The position numbers were made by a program, and so were the translations under genes. This document shows positions 7,426 through 36,611 of a DNA stretch of 64,000 nucleotides, piece after piece. The first letter of the stretch is position 1, and each line of letters opens with the position of its first letter. The notes under the pieces are model-generated. The model was not told the origin of the DNA, did not search any database, and saw nothing but the letters and a program-made list of their open reading frames with translations. The DNA is taken from NCBI GenBank assembly GCA_037308085.1, contig CP147779.1, forward strand, positions 1,504,001 to 1,568,000. Direction: 5' to 3'. This DNA comes from Promethearchaeati archaeon SRVP18_Atabeyarchaeia-1 (GTDB lineage Archaea > Asgardarchaeota > Atabeyarchaeia > Atabeyarchaeales > Atabeyarchaeaceae).

Positions 7426-8939
7426 GTATACAACAGCCTCGGAATTCATGGGCTTAGGTAGGCGTAGACAGGAGGATGGCCGTTTATATCGAGAATCCTC
7501 GCACGCTAGTATTGGTAAGGATAGGCTCCTATCCAGCGCGGATGTGGCGAGGAATGGACGAGCCGCCTATGAAGGTCGCGGCGGAGAAGCCACTGTAGGC
7601 ATGTCCGCTGAATCAGAAATCTTCCGAGAATGAGAACCTGCAAACACAGGGGGTTTGTTGAAAGCGCTAAGGACCTACTCGCTCAGCCATAACCAGGGCG
7701 AAGCACTCAGCGACCTGATGTCTGCATATAACTCCGCCCTCAACGAGATGCTGCAGCGCATCTGGGGAACAATACAGTGGAGGAAGCATCAGATCAAGGG
7801 CAAGAAGCAGCACCGGCTCTACCCTCGTTACAGGAAGGACAACGCCTTCAAGCGCGGGCTGAGAGACACATGCCTGGAAGGGTGGGTCTACGCTGCTCAC
7901 TGGGTTGACTCCGCCTTGAAGACCGCCTTCAGCATCATGGCTTCCTGGAAGAGGAACTACGACAAGGGTGAGAGGAGGAGGGCGTGCCCACACGCGGGAA
8001 GGCTCTTCCTGCGGGCAAAGCAGACCCTCCTCAAACTTGAGGGTGAAAAGCTGAGGGTCACCGTGAAGCCACGCGAGTTCGTTTACATCGACCTGTCCCG
8101 GCGCTACTTCAAGCTGCCCAGAAACGTGTCCTCCGCAGGCATAGGTGAACCCATCATCACGCCCGATAGAATACACCTCCCCGTCCACGTACAAGAAGAG
8201 CCGCAGAAGAAGCCAGCCGAGAAGACAGCGTGGGACTCGAACATGCTCAGCATGGATGGGTACAGCCCTGAGACTGGCTGGGTGAAGATTGATACGAGGA
8301 GGCTCGCCTCCGTCCACATCTCGGCCTTCGAGAAGAGGCGCAGCGTGCAGAGGAAGGCCTCCAACTCGAAGCGGGCGAAGAGAGCCCTCACGAAATACGG
8401 GAGGAGGGAGAGGCACCGCGCGAGCAAGCACCAGGTGGAGATAGCGAGGGTGATTCGCTCCCTATCAGACGAAAACGGCTTCGAGGAGCTTCGCAAGGAG
8501 AGGCTCTACTCCAAGTCGAGCGTGTGGAACAGGCGAGTAACGCGCACGGACTGGCGCGGAATAAGGAGACTCGCGGACGGCGTTGAGGTGCCTCCCCAGT
8601 TTACCTCGAAGACGTGCTCCAGATGCGGGTGGACGAACAAAGACCTAAGAGGAGGAGTAGCGGTCTTCGAGTGCGGGAAGTGTGGGCTGCGGATTGATAG
8701 GCAGCTCAACGCCGCCATCAACCTCTACCTGAGGATGGAGGGCGTTCCCCACAGGAAGGAGTGGTGGGATGCAAGCATCCTGCCTTCCTTAGTGGGTGGG
8801 TACGCCCTGACGGGGGCGGAGCGGAGGGGCGCCGATGAACTCGTGAGGCGCCTATATGATGCGGTGAAGCCCCAGATCTACGCAGCATACGACAGGTACG
8901 CTGACGCGTACCTACCCATGCCTACGTAGGTTGAAACCC
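7426..8939 (+). mobile_element. non-autonomous IS607-like tnpB element
   Basis: Removing it restores ycaQ VPKAKRKY; CC dinucleotide at both junctions (7424-25 and 8938-39); right end GTTGAAAC; vestigial TnpA HTH start (KDRLLSSADVAR, ~7517-7552). Confidence 0.75.
7655..8929 (+). CDS. tnpB: TnpB-family RNA-guided protein with RuvC-III Asp replaced by Gln
   Basis: RuvC-I WDSN, RuvC-II FEEL, Zn ribbon CSRCG..CGKCG, then DRQLNAA instead of DRDxNAA. Confidence 0.85.
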   Translation: MLKALRTYSLSHNQGEALSDLMSAYNSALNEMLQRIWGTIQWRKHQIKGKKQHRLYPRYRKDNAFKRGLRDTCLEGWVYAAHWVDSALKTAFSIMASWKRNYDKGERRRACPHAGRLFLRAKQTLLKLEGEKLRVTVKPREFVYIDLSRRYFKLPRNVSSAGIGEPIITPDRIHLPVHVQEEPQKKPAEKTAWDSNMLSMDGYSPETGWVKIDTRRLASVHISAFEKRRSVQRKASNSKRAKRALTKYGRRERHRASKHQVEIARVIRSLSDENGFEELRKERLYSKSSVWNRRVTRTDWRGIRRLADGVEVPPQFTSKTCSRCGWTNKDLRGGVAVFECGKCGLRIDRQLNAAINLYLRMEGVPHRKEWWDASILPSLVGGYALTGAERRGADELVRRLYDAVKPQIYAAYDRYADAYLPMPT

Positions 8940-24784: not shown

Positions 24785-24971
24785 ATGGGTGCGGAAGGAA
24801 ATCATGCTTGGAAAAGGTTCGTGTTGCATGAACATAGGGCCAAAAGGGCCGGGCTGCATTATGATCTAAGGTTAGAATGGGATGGTCAGTCAGTAATGTC
24901 CTTCGCAATGCGCCACTCCCCTCCGACGGAGTCCGGGGTCAAGCGACTTGCCATAGAGCAACCGCTTCACA
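24785..24971 (+). pseudogene. ligD: LigD 3'-phosphoesterase (PE) domain gene, 5' piece
   Basis: RFVLHEH..LHYDLRLE..PPTESGVKRLAIEQPLH. Confidence 0.88.
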
Positions 24972-25226
24972 GGGGCGCTGCGAGGCAGGGCAGGCTGCTC
25001 GTTGAGGTCGATCCCAGGCACACGTCTCTGTCGTGCCCCTACTGTGGATACACAGGTAGGTCGAACCAGGTTGGCTACTCCTACTTCAGGTGCAGGGCAT
25101 GCGGCTTCGAGGCGAACCGTGACCGCTTGGCGAGCCTCAACATCGCCCTCAGGGCGGCCCAAACAAAAGACACATCCAGCACCTACAAGATGGGCCAGTT
25201 TCCTGGGGGGAGCGCCTCCGTCAGTA
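24972..25226 (+). mobile_element. tnpB: IS200/IS605 tnpB 3' fragment (left part)
   Basis: VEVDPRHTSLSCPYCG..FRCRACGFEANRDRLASLNI; continues in frame at 51639 once the island is removed. Confidence 0.85.
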
Positions 25227-25382
25227 CGTGCTGACAATTGCTGTGTGTCAGTAGGCAACCTTCCTTTCTAACTCCTGCAGCTTACTCATGCGCACCCAAT
25301 GGGGGTTGATATGTCTTATTACACTGAGCTCTAAGCACCCATTGCTTCGGATGATTCGCATAAGGTTACTTATCGCATCTTT

Positions 25383-27112: not shown

Positions 27113-27746
27113 TTAGATCAATTCTCCATTTTATTTTTCACCTATTATTAAACGCTGCTTGACTTGAATTGTTCGATATGAATCGCACGATTATACGTCG
27201 TACTTCGGAAAATTAGTATTCCTCTTGGATTTCAGTCTTGCTACTTCTGGTGATAGGATCCTTGGATTTTTGCTTTGACGTAGAGCCTACCTGGAGTCAC
27301 TTCCAGATCAATGTCTCCACGAAGTAACACCTTCGCTTGGAGAAAAGGGTAACGCGTAGCGCCATTCTCACTAGGCATCATTCTGACAAATTAGCTGCAA
27401 GCTGAGAATACCTATTATTCCTTTTCTTTGCTGTTTTTCTTAGTGACGGAAGCCGTGCCCATAGCTAATCCAAGTCTTTTGATAGCTTGTACCACTGTAC
27501 CAGTCCTCCCCATTGTGGCATTCCAGATACGTTCGGATATACAAGTGATATGTTGGTCAATTCGTCATCACATTTGAGGCAGGCTCTTGCTGATCTGAGC
27601 ATTTTATTCTCCCTCCACAATTGAGTGAGTTATTGACGAAGGAATACTTCAATTCTCTCCCAAGGCTATCGAAAGTAATAAGTTTAGGAATCATGATCTA
27701 AGTAACCATAGGGATCAAGGATTTTTCGTGCTTGGGAGGGACGCTG

Positions 27747-29720
27747 ATGTATCTCAAGAAAGTGACTATTCGTAACTATGGAAGCTTGAAAGACGTATCT
27801 TTCGACGGGGCACCGTTTCTCATATTCATAGGCCCGAATGGTGCTGGCAAGTCCTTGATCTTTGAAGCTCTACACAAATTCTTTAGTGAATTCTCCTTAA
27901 CTGGAGGGCACTCGCCTGCACCAGACCTTCTATGGTACAGAAGAAACAAGGATCTTCCTATAGAATTTGAGGTCTCAATAGAAGCCAGTGACGTGGAGAT
28001 TAAGGAACTGATGCATCTTGATGACAAGTATGCGGAGATCTTGAAGCAGGCCCCACCCGAATATGGTCGCATTGAAATCAAGAGGGTGCTGTTCCCAAGC
28101 GGAGTGTGGTTGACGAAAGAAGTCCTCTGGGCTGGATCGGCTTTGGTCAAGGAAGACGCTGTTGTGACCGACGGGATACTGTCCATTCTCATACCTAGAC
28201 TTTACCCAGATATTCAGTCCTACTATAAGATGTACTCATTTCAAGAGAAGCTCTCTCCGGATGTCACCAAGACAGACACATTGATTGTGGACCTCAAAAG
28301 CAAGAAAGCTTATGGACCTGATCGCGTGTTCGATGAGTTGACTGGAATTGGATTGATATCTCAGTCCGGGGCGAAAATTGATGAGAACAGAGAACAGTGG
28401 ATAAGAAAGAATGGATACGCTTTCTCTCAATCACCTCCTGAAGAAGCTGGAAAGATCTCGCGATTTATCTCAGATTTGAGGCCTAGGAACGGTGAATCAC
28501 TGTCAGGATTGAAGACAATGTTCAAGTTTCTGCCGGCTTCCAGGGATATGAAGGCAACATCTGGCTCACGCGAATCTCTGCTGGATGGCGACACTTTGAG
28601 GAGGATGACAGATCTATCCTTTGATGAAGATACAAACGCGGAACAAAAGTGGGAAAGATACAGAAACATTGTAAGAGAAACTCTTGACTTGCAGCTTGAT
28701 CACAGCAAGACCGAGCTCAAGATAAAGGAGAACGGTCTGGGCCTCCCACCGAGTCATATTGGTGGCGGAGAGCAATCAGTGCTCGGGCTTATTTGGGAAA
28801 CTCTTGACGCAAATGGTATCATTGGGATCGAGGAACCGGAAAACCATTTGCACCCAAAGTTGCAGAGAAGAGTGCTTGAGCATTTCGTGCGCTTATCTGA
28901 GAGAATGCAGGTTGTCGTGAGCACTCACAGTCCCATTTTTGTTTCGCGATCTGACATAAGAGGAGTCTATGCCGTTTCCAAGGACAGCGAAGGGAGGACA
29001 AATTTAGCACAATTGACAGACCAAAATGTGTACACACTTATTGATGAATTGGGCGTAAGGGCAAGCGACGCATTCGACTTCGACGTAATCGTCTTTGTTG
29101 AAGGTCAGACTGATGTCCACGTACTTGACGGGTTAAAACGTTCACTTCTTAGGAACCCACAAACCCGAATTGGTTTTGTGGAGGCGCAAGGATGGACAAA
29201 CATGGTTTACTACGCAAACGCAAGAATAGTGAAATCGATGAGACCTCCGAGACCTGTCTTCATAATCTTCGACGGTGACACGGACAAGAAACAGAGAAAT
29301 AAGGAGATAAAGGATCGCGTTATGAAGGATCTCGACATACCTGAGGAAAACATCATTACACTGAAGAAGAACTGTATAGAAGCTTACTTACTAGTTCCAG
29401 AAGCCATCAAGAAGGCCTATCCAAGGATCAGATATTCAACAGAACAGATTGCCAGAATAATCGAAGATCATGAGGGAACTCAGAACAAGAAGAAAGTCCT
29501 GTCAGAAATCCTTGCAGGTGGGAACGCGGGTTCCTATGATCTAGAAAAAGCGAGAAGGATTACTGAATCAATTCCGCCGGACAAGATTGACGGAAATATA
29601 AAGGAGGCATTCGAACAGATCGAAGGAGCACAGATTCGAATTGGATCTTACAACAAGCCTATTAGGACCTCTGACAAGGAAGAACCACCGCTACCGAATG
29701 ACTCCAAAACCCGCAAGTGA
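27747..29720 (+). CDS. OLD-family ATP-dependent nuclease (ABC ATPase + TOPRIM)
   Basis: GPNGAGKS, IGGGEQ, IEEPENHLHP, STHSP, TOPRIM FVEGQTD and IFDGD. Confidence 0.9.
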   Translation: MYLKKVTIRNYGSLKDVSFDGAPFLIFIGPNGAGKSLIFEALHKFFSEFSLTGGHSPAPDLLWYRRNKDLPIEFEVSIEASDVEIKELMHLDDKYAEILKQAPPEYGRIEIKRVLFPSGVWLTKEVLWAGSALVKEDAVVTDGILSILIPRLYPDIQSYYKMYSFQEKLSPDVTKTDTLIVDLKSKKAYGPDRVFDELTGIGLISQSGAKIDENREQWIRKNGYAFSQSPPEEAGKISRFISDLRPRNGESLSGLKTMFKFLPASRDMKATSGSRESLLDGDTLRRMTDLSFDEDTNAEQKWERYRNIVRETLDLQLDHSKTELKIKENGLGLPPSHIGGGEQSVLGLIWETLDANGIIGIEEPENHLHPKLQRRVLEHFVRLSERMQVVVSTHSPIFVSRSDIRGVYAVSKDSEGRTNLAQLTDQNVYTLIDELGVRASDAFDFDVIVFVEGQTDVHVLDGLKRSLLRNPQTRIGFVEAQGWTNMVYYANARIVKSMRPPRPVFIIFDGDTDKKQRNKEIKDRVMKDLDIPEENIITLKKNCIEAYLLVPEAIKKAYPRIRYSTEQIARIIEDHEGTQNKKKVLSEILAGGNAGSYDLEKARRITESIPPDKIDGNIKEAFEQIEGAQIRIGSYNKPIRTSDKEEPPLPNDSKTRK

Positions 29721-30038
29721 GACACTCTGGTTAAGTGTAACACCTCACAGAATTGCTGCCATGAGTTGGCTTGGCGCTCACGACGCGAAGGTTGGGCGTC
29801 TCGCCAAGCAGGTGGAGCTATTCGATAAGAAAGAGAAGAGGCCCCGCAGTGATGCTATCGAACGCGAGCGCGCTAAGCGGCATCGAATAGAGGTAAGAGA
29901 TTTTGGCTCCGAATTAATATAGCTGGCTTCGTTTTAGAAGCATGTCTGGAACAGTCAAATTGGAACATAACTGGAATTCTGGTCTAATGGAAGCAAACAT
30001 CCTCTAGGGAACGGGAGAGCGCGAAAGCTATTAATATC

Positions 30039-30227
30039 TATAAGACCTAACTTCAGGCGATCGAACCGCGTACGGAGGGGCGACAACCGCCAGAACTCTG
30101 GCTTTCGGAGGGGCAAACTGGTTTCTAGTTTCTTTACATCTTTGAAGGGGGGGGGGTCCTAACGATCGGCGCTGTTCCTACGGCGCCTGCCTGAAGTGAC
30201 TCGGTTGGGAAGATGGAAGGTCTTGTA
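30039..30227 (+). ncRNA. candidate multi-stem structured RNA upstream of the MTase-REase gene
   Basis: Nested complementary pairs TATAAGACCT/AGGTCTTGTA, ACTTCAGGC/GCCTGAAGT, GATCG/CGATC, CTTTCGGAG/CTTTGAAGG, plus hairpins GCCAGA/TCTGGC, AAACTGG/CTAGTTT and GGCGCTGT/ACGGCGCC; wobble pairs are G-U on the + strand. Confidence 0.5.
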
Positions 30228-30246
30228 ACTTCTGGGGGTTAAGATC

Positions 30247-31635
30247 TTGTGGGAAAAACCTGTGTACAGATTCAGAGTTCCTACTAAGGAAGAGTCTGAT
30301 GAGCTACAAGAGATTGTGCTCGATGTAACTGGTTCTGCGCCACCATTCACCGATGTGAAAGATACAATGAAAGGCGTTTTCGAGAAGCTATTGTCGGAAG
30401 AGGGTAGGCGTGCTACTAGTGTTTTGGATTTCGGGGCAGCCAAATTGAGAAATACTCTCTACTTTCTGAATAAGGGCAAGAAGGTCTGCGCAGTAGAATT
30501 CGAAGAACTTCCCAAAAGATCAGAGGATGCCAGGATGATTCTTGAAGAATGCCAGAAGAATGTGAATTTTGAAAGTCTGGTGTTTCCACACCCGTTCATA
30601 GAACATGATGGAAGATATGATTTGGTTTTGTTAATCAATGTAATTCCTGTCATGCCAGTTTTTGCGGAAAGGCTCCTCGTTCTTCAGATTCTGTATGAGA
30701 AGGTGAATGACGGAAAATACGTTTTGTGGTATGCACAAAAGGAGGGCTCTTCATACAAGAGAATTCGAGAAGCTGGAGAAAATGATCTGGGCGATGGAAT
30801 ATGGATGGGTACCACCAGAAGATTCAAGACATTCTACAAGTATCACGCAGTTGAAGATGTTGATGAAATGATGTCTTTAGCTGGTTTTGAATTCATTAAG
30901 AAATTCGCAGGGAAGGGGAATGACGTAAGGCTGTATCAGAAGACTGAGCACAACATTTTCAAAGGCGTAATTGAACAGGAAAACGTCGCTGAAACTATAC
31001 CCACAGATTTAACGATTAAAGATCCGGAGGATGCAGAACTAAAGGTGATAAAAGGTGGTCGCGGAGTCATGGAAATCATCCCAAACCCTTCTTCTTTGTC
31101 CTTAGAGAACCTATACAAAAAAGCACTCGTACAAGTGGCGCCTGGGCCTGAAAATGCGGAAAGATACCACAGACTGGTCTCCCGAATAGTCTACCGCGTT
31201 TTCAGAGGATCCCTAAGAAATATGAAAATCAAACAGGAAATGAATGAGGGCCTAAAGGTAATCGATACTGTCTATTTGAACAACGCGGAGACAGGGTTCT
31301 TTGCCAAGTTGGCAAGGAATTTTCAAATCAAATGTCCCTACATAATAGCTGAGGCAAAGAACTATAGCGTCGATCCGAAAAACCCAGAATTTGACCAATT
31401 AGCAGGTAGATTGAATAATGATGTCGGTAAATTTGGTATTCTAGTCAGTAGAAACATTGAAGACGTTGAAGCTGCTGAACGAAGATGCCAAAGCTACTTG
31501 AGTGATGGCAAATACGTGATTTTCTTCGTCGACGCAGATTTAACGAACTTGCTGGAACTGTACCAAGATGGAGATACTGAGGGAATAGGCGATTTCATGG
31601 ATGGGAAGCTAAGACCTTTGGTTTTCAGGTCATAA
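30247..31635 (+). CDS. class I SAM-methyltransferase-like domain fused to an Mrr-like restriction endonuclease
   Basis: VLDFGAAKLRN and YDLVLLINVI at the N-terminus; KVID..IIAEAKNY..DQL at the C-terminus. Confidence 0.75.
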   Translation: MWEKPVYRFRVPTKEESDELQEIVLDVTGSAPPFTDVKDTMKGVFEKLLSEEGRRATSVLDFGAAKLRNTLYFLNKGKKVCAVEFEELPKRSEDARMILEECQKNVNFESLVFPHPFIEHDGRYDLVLLINVIPVMPVFAERLLVLQILYEKVNDGKYVLWYAQKEGSSYKRIREAGENDLGDGIWMGTTRRFKTFYKYHAVEDVDEMMSLAGFEFIKKFAGKGNDVRLYQKTEHNIFKGVIEQENVAETIPTDLTIKDPEDAELKVIKGGRGVMEIIPNPSSLSLENLYKKALVQVAPGPENAERYHRLVSRIVYRVFRGSLRNMKIKQEMNEGLKVIDTVYLNNAETGFFAKLARNFQIKCPYIIAEAKNYSVDPKNPEFDQLAGRLNNDVGKFGILVSRNIEDVEAAERRCQSYLSDGKYVIFFVDADLTNLLELYQDGDTEGIGDFMDGKLRPLVFRS

Positions 31636-34295: not shown

Positions 34296-35751
34296 TCAGT
34301 GCTACCTCCATAAGAAACCCATGTGGAACGCCGCCACCGTTCATCAAGCGTTTCACTCAATTTCTCGAACCTCTATTTATCAGCTCGACATGCTTAGGGG
34401 TTTCCGGTCATGCTACGAGTCGACCGTCCGCTCTTCTTCTCAACAACACTGTGACAGAGGTGGCTTATAAGTGTGACGGAAAAGCGCCTCTCTGGTGCCT
34501 CTAATCCAGATTTCAGACATGCTAATATCCTATAAATCAAATATAGATAACTGAATGTCCTAAATTATAAATTAAGGCTCACATTTGGTTTATTTACCAA
34601 TTCCTATATTCACTATTTCATTAATTCTTTTCTTTTCATTTGTTTCATTTATCTCACATTGTGATTTGCAGTATTTTCTGTATTTCTTATGCCCCTCCAC
34701 ATTTTAACGGAGAGAATTGCGCACCTTGTACGACCAAAAGGGAAAACCTTGCTTCCCGAACCATGCTGAAAGTAGGTGGCACAGAAGCAGACGGGTTGTT
34801 CCAGAGTGTATCATTAGTCCAATCCAGCAGGGCATGCGAGCAGACTGTGATGGCAATGTGCCCTCGCGGTGCAGTAGTAAACACCTCGACCGCAGCCTGC
34901 GTATCGCTCTTTGTAGGTCTGGTTCAGATGCTGGGTCCGTTAATAGATGCTGCCGACGAATCACTTGGAACACTCTCTCTCAAGGGGAGAGAGGTAACAG
35001 GGTTGGATCGAAATCGACATGTTGGAGAAAAAGACATCAAATTACAGGGAATCAGCTGAGGATCATAAAAGCCGAGTTATGCACAGCCAACACTACGAAA
35101 GTAGCTAAACGGTGGCGCGCTAAACATATTCTTTCAACTTTGCATCGACCTATCATTACCCTGAACTTCCCTGAACTTGTACCTCATTGAGGTGTCTGCA
35201 CCGGAGGAGTTGTCATAACAACTAATGCATTTAGTCAGTTCAAAACGATTCTCGCCATAGCCTCTTCATCGTTTTCTACATAAATCACCTTGATTCAGAG
35301 ATTGTGATTCCTAACTATTTCAGAATAAACAGCCTCTACGCGCCCTCCAACCTCAATCTGCCGCTTACTACGGTCAACATCTACCAGGCCCTACCTTCTA
35401 TCAGCCTTCTCAATGCAGTCGGTCGCATTCATTTTGAGGGTCTCATCAGCGCAGATGCCGTTGGCGGTTATCTCTGAAAGGTTGAAAGGTTTGATCATCC
35501 ATATGCGATCCTGCCTATCTACTCACATACGTCTCCATCTCAGCATCCATTTAATTTCTATTTAAATTCAATAATCCAATCTATCCGTTTCCGACCAGAG
35601 AACCAAACTCATTTATAAAAGTGCTAATATAAGCTACATAGCTATAGGCATCCGTTTAGGTAGGTACTTGTGCCCTCAACAACCTACCTTCTCACGTCAA
35701 GAACCCTTCTTAATCAGCCAAAACAATTCAAATCAATTCGATTATTATTCC

Positions 35752-35976
35752 TCACTCTGACCCGAATAATCCTGATTTATCGTCATTCGATGCAGGATAA
35801 TAACCTAATTCATGTTCTTCTATTAATTTCAAGACAATATCCTCTGCCTCTGGTCTCTCTAAATTCAATTTGCCACGCAGTAAAGAGACAGCTTCATCTG
35901 TGGATAGACTCTGCCCTTTATACTCCGCTCTCCACTTCGAGACCAGACATCTTGATGCCAGACAATATTCACTCAT
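35752..35976 (-). CDS. small hypothetical protein (possible winged helix)
   Basis: 74 aa, amphipathic helices, GGTGA-like RBS upstream. Confidence 0.4.
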   Translation of the reverse strand: MSEYCLASRCLVSKWRAEYKGQSLSTDEAVSLLRGKLNLERPEAEDIVLKLIEEHELGYYPASNDDKSGLFGSE

Positions 35977-36611
35977 GTGAATTCACCTAACCCCGATTGC
36001 CTAAAGTTCCCTTTGCGAGTGGCTCCGTGGAAAGTATGGAAATTGGTCGAATGGTTGCATCGATCTTCGCAGACGCAGGTGTCCTGACCTAAGACCATAT
36101 TATGATCTTAAGCATGACATCCAGGCGAAAATACTTGCTGGGCTTGCCGAGCTCAGATTTGGAGACTCCAAGTTCATATTTGAGCTCCTAGTCCCAAATC
36201 TCATCCTCGTCCAGCATCCGATATTTGGATGGAAAGAGGCAGGTTCAGTGGCTCATATTTGCACGGCTTTAATAAAACAAGGTGAGCATGAGTTGGCGAG
36301 GAGAGCCTATCTGGGACAAGCAGACAAAGAAACCGTCCATAGGATCCACATTGAATATAACAAGGAACTTTGGCGGCTCTTGAGTGCGCTGATGAGCTAA
36401 AGATTACCTGACGGATCACCGTCTCCCAAAGAGATTCTAAAGAATGTCTCTGTTCCCACTTTCTCGGGGTCTGCAAGCCTATACGAGAGTTATTCAAAGT
36501 CTCCGTTTCAACGGACCTGGTTGTGTCTAATGCGACTCTTTCGACTTGAGACATGTTTGGAAAGATCAGCCGGTATTTGACAGAACTTATCATGGAGTCC
36601 TCTCTGCTCCA

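Follow-up and report, generated by a model that had tools for sequence, protein, structure and literature searches.

Restriction enzymes of Type IIS, such as FokI and BspD6I, and of Type IV, such as MspJI and AspBHI, consist of an N-terminal head for recognition, which is a DNA reader of the helix-turn-helix or SRA type, and a separate PD-(D/E)xK cleavage domain at the C terminus. In the Type IIG/IIL enzymes MmeI, BpuSI, and DrdV, one polypeptide unites a nuclease with a methyltransferase fold; these proteins of ~900 to 1,000 aa begin with the nuclease, and they also contain a gamma-class N6-adenine methylase bearing NPPY and a target recognition domain. The locus described here has points in common with both groups and, with a structured stretch directly preceding a nuclease gene on that gene's own strand, also recalls the type III toxin-antitoxin RNAs (ToxI), the noncoding RNA (ncRNA) of retrons, and SAM riboswitch leaders. 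It lies in a window of 64,000 nt, the whole stretch of DNA that was analyzed, from Promethearchaeati archaeon SRVP18_Atabeyarchaeia-1 (assembly GCA_037308085.1, CP147779.1, positions 1,504,001 to 1,568,000 of the forward strand), and all coordinates refer to that window. An initial annotation had proposed an RNA-protein defense module at this site, with the RNA serving as antitoxin, scaffold, or switch. The features of the locus are as follows.

27732..29720, + strand: gene for an OLD-family ABC-ATPase/TOPRIM nuclease (662 aa), the upstream neighbor; Pfam AAA_15, AAA_21, and OLD-like_TOPRIM
29721..30035, + strand: initial part of the spacer, 315 nt without excess structure (fold z of +0.57 versus shuffles)
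30029..30044, + strand: AT-rich TATA-like box TATTAATATCTATAAG, read from the sequence as a candidate archaeal promoter
30036..30232, + strand: stem-rich stretch, predicted to form 71 pairs with 4 branch points (minimum free energy [MFE], -78.4 kcal/mol)
30039..30058, + strand: 5' arms of helices P1 and P2
30039-48/30218-27, + strand: helix P1, the outer closing helix, TATAAGACCT/AGGTCTTGTA, confirmed in the sequence
30050-58/30189-97, + strand: helix P2, a closing helix, ACTTCAGGC/GCCTGAAGT, confirmed in the sequence
30059-63/30163-67, + strand: helix GATCG/CGATC, confirmed in the sequence
30066-75, 30089-102, 30115-31, and 30168-87, + strand: hairpins, confirmed in the sequence
30103-11/30139-47, + strand: helix UUUCGGAGG/UCUUUGAAG, confirmed in the sequence
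30147..30156, + strand: G10 homopolymer (11 G in one metagenome contig)
30189..30227, + strand: 3' arms of P2 and P1, separated by a 20-nt bulge
30234..30238, + strand: GGGGG, Shine-Dalgarno (SD)-like, 8 nt before the start
30247..31635, + strand: gene for a two-domain protein of 462 aa, TTG start
30247..30951, + strand: N-terminal domain (residues 1 to 235), class I SAM-methyltransferase fold (AF2 model, pLDDT 90.5)
31030..31632, + strand: C-terminal domain (residues 262 to 462), PD-(D/E)xK nuclease of the FokI/BspD6I/MspJI type (model pLDDT 87)
31264..31359, + strand: catalytic core, D340 (31264-66) and E369-A-K371 (31351-59), invariant in 35 sequences

The start of the fusion gene at TTG 30247 is backed by an in-frame stop at 30226 to 30228 and by W2, which is invariant in 35 homologues. 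Structural comparison of the N-terminal domain returned 3sm3 (Z, 16.2; rmsd, 2.9; 187 aligned residues), 5ufm (Z, 15.7), and METTL6 (Z, 15.4), with hundreds of methyltransferases at a Z of >8 and a Foldseek probability of 1.0, and the nearest folds include small-molecule and tRNA methyltransferases (METTL6, Trm9, and a cmo5U34 enzyme). The family motifs of this domain are DVTGSAP, FGA[AG]KLRN (G63, A64, K66), AVEF (E84), and NVxPVMP (N131). Motif I reads LDFGA[AG]KLRN as against E/DxGxGxG, with the first glycine invariant, the second either glycine or alanine, and the third replaced; E84 is invariant in 35 fusion proteins and nearly so when stand-alone relatives are added. The same motifs are found in stand-alone relatives of 227 to 244 aa, and the head is therefore probably a working SAM enzyme; SAM is probably bound by the domain. 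Searches of Pfam gave no match to DNA-methylase families, the only hit being a weak one to Methyltransf_23 (E, 0.0014) that fell below the cut-off, and the canonical motif, (D/N/S)PP(Y/F/W) or PC, is absent, with SAPPF and NVIPVMP present instead. With neither a family match nor a catalytic motif, an N6A, N4C, or 5mC DNA methyltransferase was rejected, and the class I SAM fold devoid of DNA-methyltransferase motifs that had been read from the sequence was borne out. The further proposals that the head senses SAM and acts against SAM lyases are speculation.

The closest structures to the C-terminal domain are FokI (Z, 12.8), N.BspD6I (Z, 12.1), the small subunit of R.BspD6I (Z, 11.9), and AspBHI (Z, 10.1); MspJI and AspBHI were the top Foldseek matches, and the PD-(D/E)xK relatives Can2 and Card1 were also among the fold matches. 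The initial annotation had called this domain an Mrr-like ID..EAK nuclease. The PD-(D/E)xK fold and the invariance of ID...EAK uphold the nuclease part of that description, whereas the Mrr label gives way to closer likeness to FokI, BspD6I, and MspJI: Pfam Mrr_cat was matched by 4 of 32 members (best E, 0.072) and not by the window protein, and the Mrr family was set aside for want of an above-threshold match. The likeness to FokI and MspJI is structural and predicted, sequence similarity being below Pfam thresholds. The head, a SAM-methyltransferase fold, is what separates this protein from FokI, BspD6I, MspJI, and AspBHI. With MmeI, BpuSI, and DrdV it shares the joining of nuclease and methyltransferase fold in one chain and SAM as the expected cofactor, and BpuSI and DrdV match the C-terminal fold, if more weakly, through their nuclease domains (Z, 6.5 and 5.5), but it differs from them in being 462 aa long, in its reversed domain order, and in having no DNA-methylase Pfam match and no NPPY/DPPY. 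A third likeness is to protein A of PADLOC PDC-M36: the profile PDLC04597 is hit by 33 of the 35 members of the family (best E, 1e-16), in every case by way of the C-terminal nuclease module (profile positions ~270 to 450 of 457), whereas its first two thirds find no match, and the heads therefore differ. PADLOC recognized no PDC-M36 partner gene among the neighbors. The nuclease module forms the C terminus of many proteins of 180 to 700 aa that have other heads.

The fusion family comprises at least 431 cluster representatives at the 50%-identity level (E of ≤1e-30), mostly from archaea, and is sporadic, with members in 7 of the 399 other genomes from this phylum. The commonest neighbor cluster occurs at 7 of 102 loci, and no Pfam family is found in more than 5 of 99 flanking proteins, among which ResIII helicases, DNA methylases, HsdM/HsdS, NACHT proteins, integrases, and transposases recur. 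The neighbors in the window (OLD, HEPN, and others) are absent from all 105 homologue loci. The OLD gene, which is also matched by the PADLOC profiles AriA, Old, and GajA, was rejected as a partner, since no OLD homologue occurs at those 105 loci. Across the loci compared, the fusion gene stands alone, without a conserved neighbor, in variable contexts rich in restriction genes and mobile elements. Literature searches on PDC-M36 and on methyltransferase-nuclease sensor fusions yielded no paper that mentions PDC-M36 and none on the fusion family, which is compact, well conserved, and uncharacterized.

The spacer between the end of the OLD gene (29720) and TTG 30247 is 526 nt long. It had been described as folding into at least seven stems; the segment from 30036 to 30232 is indeed stem rich, whereas the first 315 nt carries no excess structure. 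That first part contains a 53-codon open reading frame (29761 to 29922) whose homologue search returned only the protein itself, and a decayed gene was rejected as the origin of the spacer, since six-frame tblastn searches of the genome and of the homologue loci matched only the spacer itself. The nested stems at 30039 to 30227 exist as claimed, CGGAGGGGC is present twice as reported, and the 3' end of the structure falls 19 nt before TTG 30247, in agreement with the ~20 nt given earlier. The fold is far stronger on the + strand (-78.4 versus -52.4 kcal/mol on the - strand) because of its composition (31% G and 24% U), and G-U pairs are not enriched (fraction, 0.17 versus 0.20 in shuffles). 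The SD-like sequence and the start codon are unpaired in both the MFE and centroid structures, the large structure leaving the former free. The TATA-like box overlaps the 5' arm of P1. In this genome, such boxes are most frequent 50 to 100 nt ahead of starts that have an SD, their frequency at -200 being no higher than background, and the box nearest the gene, ~205 nt upstream, is atypically distant for the genome. A scan for bacterial promoters and terminators, which is not applicable to an archaeon, found none.

The significance of the fold is moderate. Against shuffles, z is -2.47 for 211 nt and -3.6 for the exact 197 nt, whose bounds were chosen post hoc and which beats 300 of 300 shuffles; adjusted for composition against the window background, z is ~-2.1, a rank of 163 in 6,382, with more than 30 separate places being equal or better. 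The same tool finds better folds in the window at 181 to 380 (z, -4.16) and 36081 to 36280 (z, -3.66). The sole unusual element is the composite helix of P1 and P2, a double helix with 15 matches (9 distinct loci) in the 2.8-Mb genome versus 6.3 in shuffled genomes; six of the nine loci lie outside long open reading frames, and one is a tRNA-like gene. Going by these counts, the structure might be more than an accident.

No relative of the stretch was recovered. Rfam 15 gave no match anywhere in the window at gathering thresholds and none between 29600 and 30400 at E of ≤10, SAM riboswitches included, in keeping with the earlier statement that the RNA belongs to no recognized family, and ARAGORN found no tRNA. 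BLAST, blastn at word size 7, and a covariance model (R1) found no further genomic copy; R1 retrieved only the stretch itself and had no hit among 150 genomes of the phylum or at 60 plus 7 loci of gene homologues. Genomes of the same genus and the same family lack the stretch, and they also lack the gene. Two 20-mers from the structure had no exact match in viral contigs. Tandem Repeats Finder (minimum score, 30) returned no rows, the only repeat being a 14-nt motif in two copies, and a ToxIN-like type III toxin-antitoxin system, which requires a tandem RNA repeat array, was rejected. OLD-type effectors accompany some retrons; a retron requires an adjacent reverse transcriptase, and PF00078 matched nothing anywhere in the genome (97% complete), so that this candidate was also rejected. 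A MITE or other multicopy repeat, which had been named as an outcome that would undo the proposal, was discarded on account of the single copy. In the genomes searched, the stretch is thus an orphan specific to one archaeal strain.

The regions upstream of the gene homologues likewise gave no sign of the RNA. No similarity to the spacer was detected at the 105 homologue loci, many homologues have the preceding gene only 1 to 40 nt away, and 17 homologues with long gaps, one of them 65% identical, showed no excess folding upstream versus shuffles; the upstream comparison left out the closest homologues, P0003 to P0008 (64 to 70% identity). A conserved covarying structure was thus not found in the 105 loci, the 17 folds, or the 67 loci searched with the covariance model. 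The homologues lack the upstream structure, and the RNA-protein module is therefore not supported; as judged by these comparisons, the fusion gene does not have the RNA as its partner. Neither does the stretch conform to ToxI, retron ncRNA, or SAM riboswitches, from which it differs in having no tandem array, reverse transcriptase, or Rfam match and in not being conserved along with the gene family.

We consider it probable, with room for error, that the gene encodes a self-contained, restriction-like enzyme acting as a single gene and that the stretch is strain-specific noncoding DNA and not a component of a system. The gene would be horizontally scattered, and its product would tether a (probable) SAM-binding methyltransferase-fold domain to a FokI-type PD-(D/E)xK cleavage domain. 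If FokI, BspD6I, and MspJI are a guide, selection or licensing of the target may fall to the N-terminal domain and the cutting of nucleic acid to the C-terminal one, probably once paired with a second copy; we infer a DNA substrate and a role in defense. The 197-nt stretch, between the TATA-like box and the ribosome-binding site, would most likely be the 5' leader of the gene, transcribed by inference, or junction DNA of the island, and its structure would be incidental, with a local braking of expression as the most that it might do. Three observations sit against this explanation: the count of loci with the composite helix of P1 and P2 (9 in the genome versus ~6 matches in shuffles) suggests that the structure may be no accident, the ~205-nt distance from the TATA-like box is compatible with a functional leader, and the exact stretch outfolds every one of the 300 shuffles.

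An unlikely, though serious, alternative is a cis-acting leader that evolved only in this lineage, a long structured 5' untranslated region that would lower or time the production of a nuclease potentially toxic to its own host, acting, for instance, on the stability of the mRNA or on the access of ribosomes. The stretch lies exactly between the TATA-like box and the SD/start codon, the gene has an SD and therefore needs a leader, the + strand fold is much the stronger, and closing helices of the P1 and P2 type are rare in the genome (9 loci versus ~6 matches in shuffles), but the SD and start are left unpaired, no homologue has a similar stretch, and a promoter at 30029 to 30044 would place the transcript start at ~30060 to 30070, giving an RNA without the 5' arms of P1 and P2. 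A second sample carries two single-nucleotide polymorphisms (SNPs) in the stretch, at 30059 and 30068, both G>A, and each disrupts a predicted G-C pair, which weighs both against an RNA partner and against a leader. We think it improbable that the stretch is a mobile or foldback relic (a solo hairpin, a MITE-like insertion, or an inverted local duplication between promoter and gene), whose stems would be inverted repeats at the DNA level with no role as RNA. An interrupted 20-nt inverted repeat at both ends, a separation of box and gene ~180 nt above that typical here, the TnpB and IS relics held by the island (a TnpB fragment lies at 24785 to 25234), and a 10-nt direct repeat, TAACTTC(A/T)GG, at 30048 and 30226 fit such a relic; against it, there is a single copy with not even weak ones by blastn at word size 7 or the covariance model, the 20-mers are not found in viral contigs, and no insert-free strain that would reveal the joints was seen. 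The direct repeat was rejected as a target site duplication: repeats of 10 nt with 9/10 identity are expected by chance in 800 nt, and nine such families were found.

We give very little credence to a two-component defense system in which a trans-acting RNA (antitoxin, scaffold, or methylation substrate) partners the protein. The stretch adjoins the gene on the same strand, the closest folds to the head include the tRNA methyltransferases METTL6, Trm9, and the cmo5U34 enzyme, and Can2 and Card1 are among the nuclease matches, but the ≥431 cluster representatives keep both domains without such an RNA, tandem repeats of the type III toxin-antitoxin kind are lacking, and the genome without a reverse transcriptase excludes a retron. 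The SNP load points the same way: 2 SNPs fall within the 97 nt of the RNA region that were covered, whereas ~1.3 kb of the gene has 2 SNPs plus indels. With the RNA lacking in homologues, this reading is already largely refuted. Just as remote is an independent small ncRNA gene of no recognized family, present here by coincidence: the composite-helix criterion also finds a tRNA-like gene elsewhere in the genome, and a TATA-like box lies directly upstream, but searches of genomes from the same genus and the same family and of 150 genomes of the phylum recovered no relative, no archaeal oligo-T terminator follows 30227, and the internal G10 tract varies in length.

An RNA-plus-protein defense system would have been of a new kind, and it is the RNA half that fails on comparison with relatives. 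What remains of interest is the coupling of an unusual methyltransferase-fold head to a FokI-like module that is shared with many other heads. Should the head turn out to sense SAM or a modification, the protein would exemplify a minimal sensor-nuclease design of relevance to archaeal immunity and, possibly, a programmable cleavage scaffold. As a doubtful extension, the family might constitute a new class of single-gene, SAM-linked immune nucleases, mainly archaeal and rich in DPANN members, in which the head senses a signal or licenses the FokI-like cutter and a leader arisen de novo acts as a cis brake at this locus. The head would then be a small-molecule or RNA-type methyltransferase, and the signal would be the SAM/SAH level, a modified base, or RNA. 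A minor observation concerns the 12-mer CAGCGCGCGCTA, which was rejected as a cassette-boundary motif in the spacer, its 9-mer copy there being within chance (1 found versus 0.4 expected); the full 12-mer is enriched, with 3 copies versus 0.17 expected.

The fusion of a SAM-fold head to a nuclease described in the initial annotation is real, as the predicted structures and the invariant nuclease residues attest, and is uncharacterized. In an AlphaFold2 model of the 462-amino-acid product of 30247-31635 (+), generated from a 35-sequence alignment (pLDDT 90.5, pTM 0.91), residues 1-235 adopt a class I SAM-methyltransferase fold, with VIA-align Z scores of 16.2 to 3sm3, 15.7 to 5ufm (toxoflavin N-methyltransferase), and 15.4 to METTL6, and Foldseek agrees on this assignment; in Pfam, the head matched Methyltransf_23 only, below threshold, and no DNA-methylase family. 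Residues 262-462, modelled alone with a pLDDT of 87, are predicted to form a PD-(D/E)xK nuclease in which D340, E369, and K371 are invariant among 35 homologues; the nearest fold match is the FokI cleavage domain (Z 12.8), and N.BspD6I (12.1), the BspD6I small subunit (11.9), LlaBIII, AspBHI (10.1), and MspJI are also close.

The head carries strongly conserved, family-specific motifs (DVTGSAP, LDFGA[AG]KLRN, AVEF, and NVxPVMP), and since these are shared with stand-alone relatives of 227 to 244 amino acids, it looks, judged by sequence, like a functional enzyme or ligand-binding domain rather than a decayed one. The stand-alone relatives adjoin SecY in Micrarchaeota and a HerA-like ATPase in some bacteria. 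In the micrarchaeal loci L018-L019, they lie directly behind SecY (checked in Pfam for L018, by matching gene layout for L019), and in the bacterial loci L023-L025, 227-residue versions immediately follow a HerA-like (DUF87) ATPase, confirmed with Pfam in L024 and L025 and represented in L023 by an upstream ORF of similar size. Seven family members of about 600 to 630 amino acids (P0159, P0163-P0165, P0167, P0169, and P0173) have an extra domain of about 140 residues ahead of the head.

The nuclease module, to which alone the PADLOC candidate PDC-M36A matches, forms the C terminus of many proteins of 180 to 700 amino acids with different heads, one of which resembles the C-terminal part of DarG. 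This last combination is, on sequence similarity, a second effector architecture. It occurs in proteins of 361 to 377 amino acids from AT-rich genomes of the same phylum: those at L113:1501-2583(-) and L115:1501-2631(-) pair the DarG-like head (PADLOC E down to 5e-11) with a module matched by PDC-M36A, and in that at L117:916-2025(+), which also has the head (E 2e-12), the module shows up by tblastn similarity but not as a PDC-M36A match. By analogy with FokI, BspD6I, and MspJI, a nonspecific cleavage domain would be attached to a head that determines the timing or site of cleavage; in the fusion protein, the head is the modelled SAM-type Rossmann domain, which might methylate, sense SAM or SAH, or read a modified base or RNA. 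Gating of the nuclease against viral SAM lyases, an example given in the initial annotation, is speculative.

The family is large, with 247 proteins in a word-indexed search and at least 431 cluster representatives at E<=1e-30 in an exhaustive profile search. It has no conserved neighbour: the commonest neighbouring cluster was present in 7 of 102 loci, and no Pfam family appeared more than five times among 99 flanking proteins. ResIII helicases, DNA methylases, HsdM/HsdS, NACHT, TOTE primase, integrases, and transposases recur, and the gene is found in 7 of 399 other genomes of the phylum; this pattern of restriction and mobile-gene themes without a fixed partner is consistent with a restriction-like module of one gene that spreads horizontally. 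ResIII helicases were neighbours at five loci. The four inspected (L003, L041, L045, and L073) have a ResIII/SF2 helicase gene of about 730 to 785 codons directly upstream on the same strand, with gaps of 11 to 37 nt, and may represent a two-gene variant of the system.

The sequence features listed in the initial annotation for the spacer between the OLD gene and the fusion gene were all present, and this part of the observation stood; the fold as a whole exceeds chance only moderately. At minimum free energy, 30036-30232 folds with 71 pairs, and the structure stops 19 nt short of the TTG at 30247. Its elements are as follows.

30039-48/30218-27, + strand: closing helix P1, 10 bp, one G-U
30050-58/30189-97, + strand: closing helix P2, 9 bp, perfect
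Inside P1/P2, + strand: GAUCG/CGAUC helix
Inside P1/P2, + strand: inner three-way domain based on UUUCGGAGG/UCUUUGAAG
30168-87, + strand: GC-rich hairpin of 8 bp, inside P1/P2
30147-30156, + strand: homopolymer of ten G (G10) within the leader

In a metagenome contig from a third sample, this tract has 11 G, either a length polymorphism or an assembly slip. In contigs from a second sample, G is replaced by A at both 30059 and 30068, and each substitution leaves A·C where G-C pairing is predicted.

For 30030-30240, z was -2.47 (1 of 200 shuffles folded equally well), and it reached -3.6 after the boundaries were trimmed, post hoc, to the closing helix. When every 200-nt segment of the 64 kb was folded on both strands and energy was regressed on composition, the stretch scored z -2.06, ranking 163 of 6,382, with more than 30 separate places equal or better. 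G-U pairs were not enriched (0.17 versus 0.20 in shuffles), the strand asymmetry of folding is due to a G content of 31%, 31% of shuffles attained a longest helix of 10 bp, and no excess structure was seen in the initial 315 nt of the spacer (526 nt in all). The two strongest folds in the window, neither with an Rfam match, lie elsewhere.

181-380, + strand: long imperfect hairpin, MFE -70.8 kcal/mol, z -4.16, 0 of 200 shuffles as good; no long ORFs within, and a 324-aa ORF (426-1400) beginning about 45 nt downstream
36081-36280, + strand: z -3.66 with the same tool as for the stretch, 0 of 200 shuffles as good; located between ORF 35670-35990 (+) and ORF 36201-36593 (-), with part of it inside the second

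The sole really unusual element is the nested pair of long-range helices, P1 and P2. Such a composite gave 15 hits at 9 loci genome-wide, versus 6.3 hits in shuffled genomes; of the nine loci, six do not fall in long ORFs, and one is a tRNA-like gene. This excess and placement make a nonrandom origin plausible, though not established. Seven of the 15 hits fall in L123 (G000:C1:2597100-2597325), where long-range inverted repeats with TGAGTCATT-type units overlap in a dense cluster that has no Rfam match.

The proposal that RNA and protein form one module was not borne out: the stretch does not accompany the gene in the relatives' loci compared. In 105 loci of relatives fetched from genomes and metagenomes, blastn and nhmmer found no sequence similar to the spacer; another 7 loci came from the same phylum. 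In many loci, the preceding gene ends 1 to 40 nt before the start, and in a set of 17 whose gaps are long, the 65%-identical L028 among them, the 220 nt ahead of the gene showed no stronger folding than shuffles. A covariance model of the structure (self-score, 240 bits) had no hit at E<=10 in 60 relatives' loci, none at E<=1 in 150 phylum genomes, and, run without filters, none exceeding 9.6 bits in the 7 added loci. The stretch is single copy in the genome and has no tandem repeats, and the genome has no reverse transcriptase.

The TTG at 30247 is the right start, backed by an in-frame stop at 30226-28 and by Trp-2, invariant in 35 homologues; GTG 30262, implied by a 457-aa database entry, would remove that residue and was rejected. 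The start codon and an SD-like GGGGG remain unpaired when the leader is cofolded with the gene start. TATA-like AT-rich boxes in this genome peak 50 to 100 nt before SD-led starts, and the fusion gene has none in that interval. The closest, at 30029-44, is some 205 nt away on the upstream side and shares sequence with the P1 5' arm. Either the gene's leader is unusually long, and P1 and P2 might then not be transcribed whole, or the gene is read through from the OLD gene. The stretch is most likely strain-specific leader or junction DNA. The main rivals to this reading are a local regulatory role and a relic of a foldback insertion.

The OLD and fusion genes were found in no genome of the same genus or family, and their setting is a variable island. 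The window (48.6% GC) is also present in metagenomes from freshwater sediment and wetland. About 5 kb upstream of the fusion gene lies a relic of a mobile element.

24785-25234, + strand: truncated TnpB relic, a 149-aa ORF matching the TnpB (Cas12f1-like TNB) zinc-ribbon domain, plus a LigD_N fragment

Close to the 3' end of a TnpB element, at 8600-8900, both strands fold strongly (z about -3.5 after adjustment for composition); this may be the element's guide-RNA scaffold. A short CAGCGCGCGCTA copy in the spacer, at 29867, is not beyond chance; the 12-mer CAGCGCGCGCTA itself has three copies in the window (33224, 42037, and 46654), in a single orientation, versus 0.17 expected. The source genome is archaeal, a single 2.8-Mb contig, and its 16S rRNA gene, L108 (G000:C1:448464-450889; archaeal SSU model, 1293 bits), spans 2,426 nt for a 1,478-position model and so holds about 950 nt of insertions, probably one or more introns.
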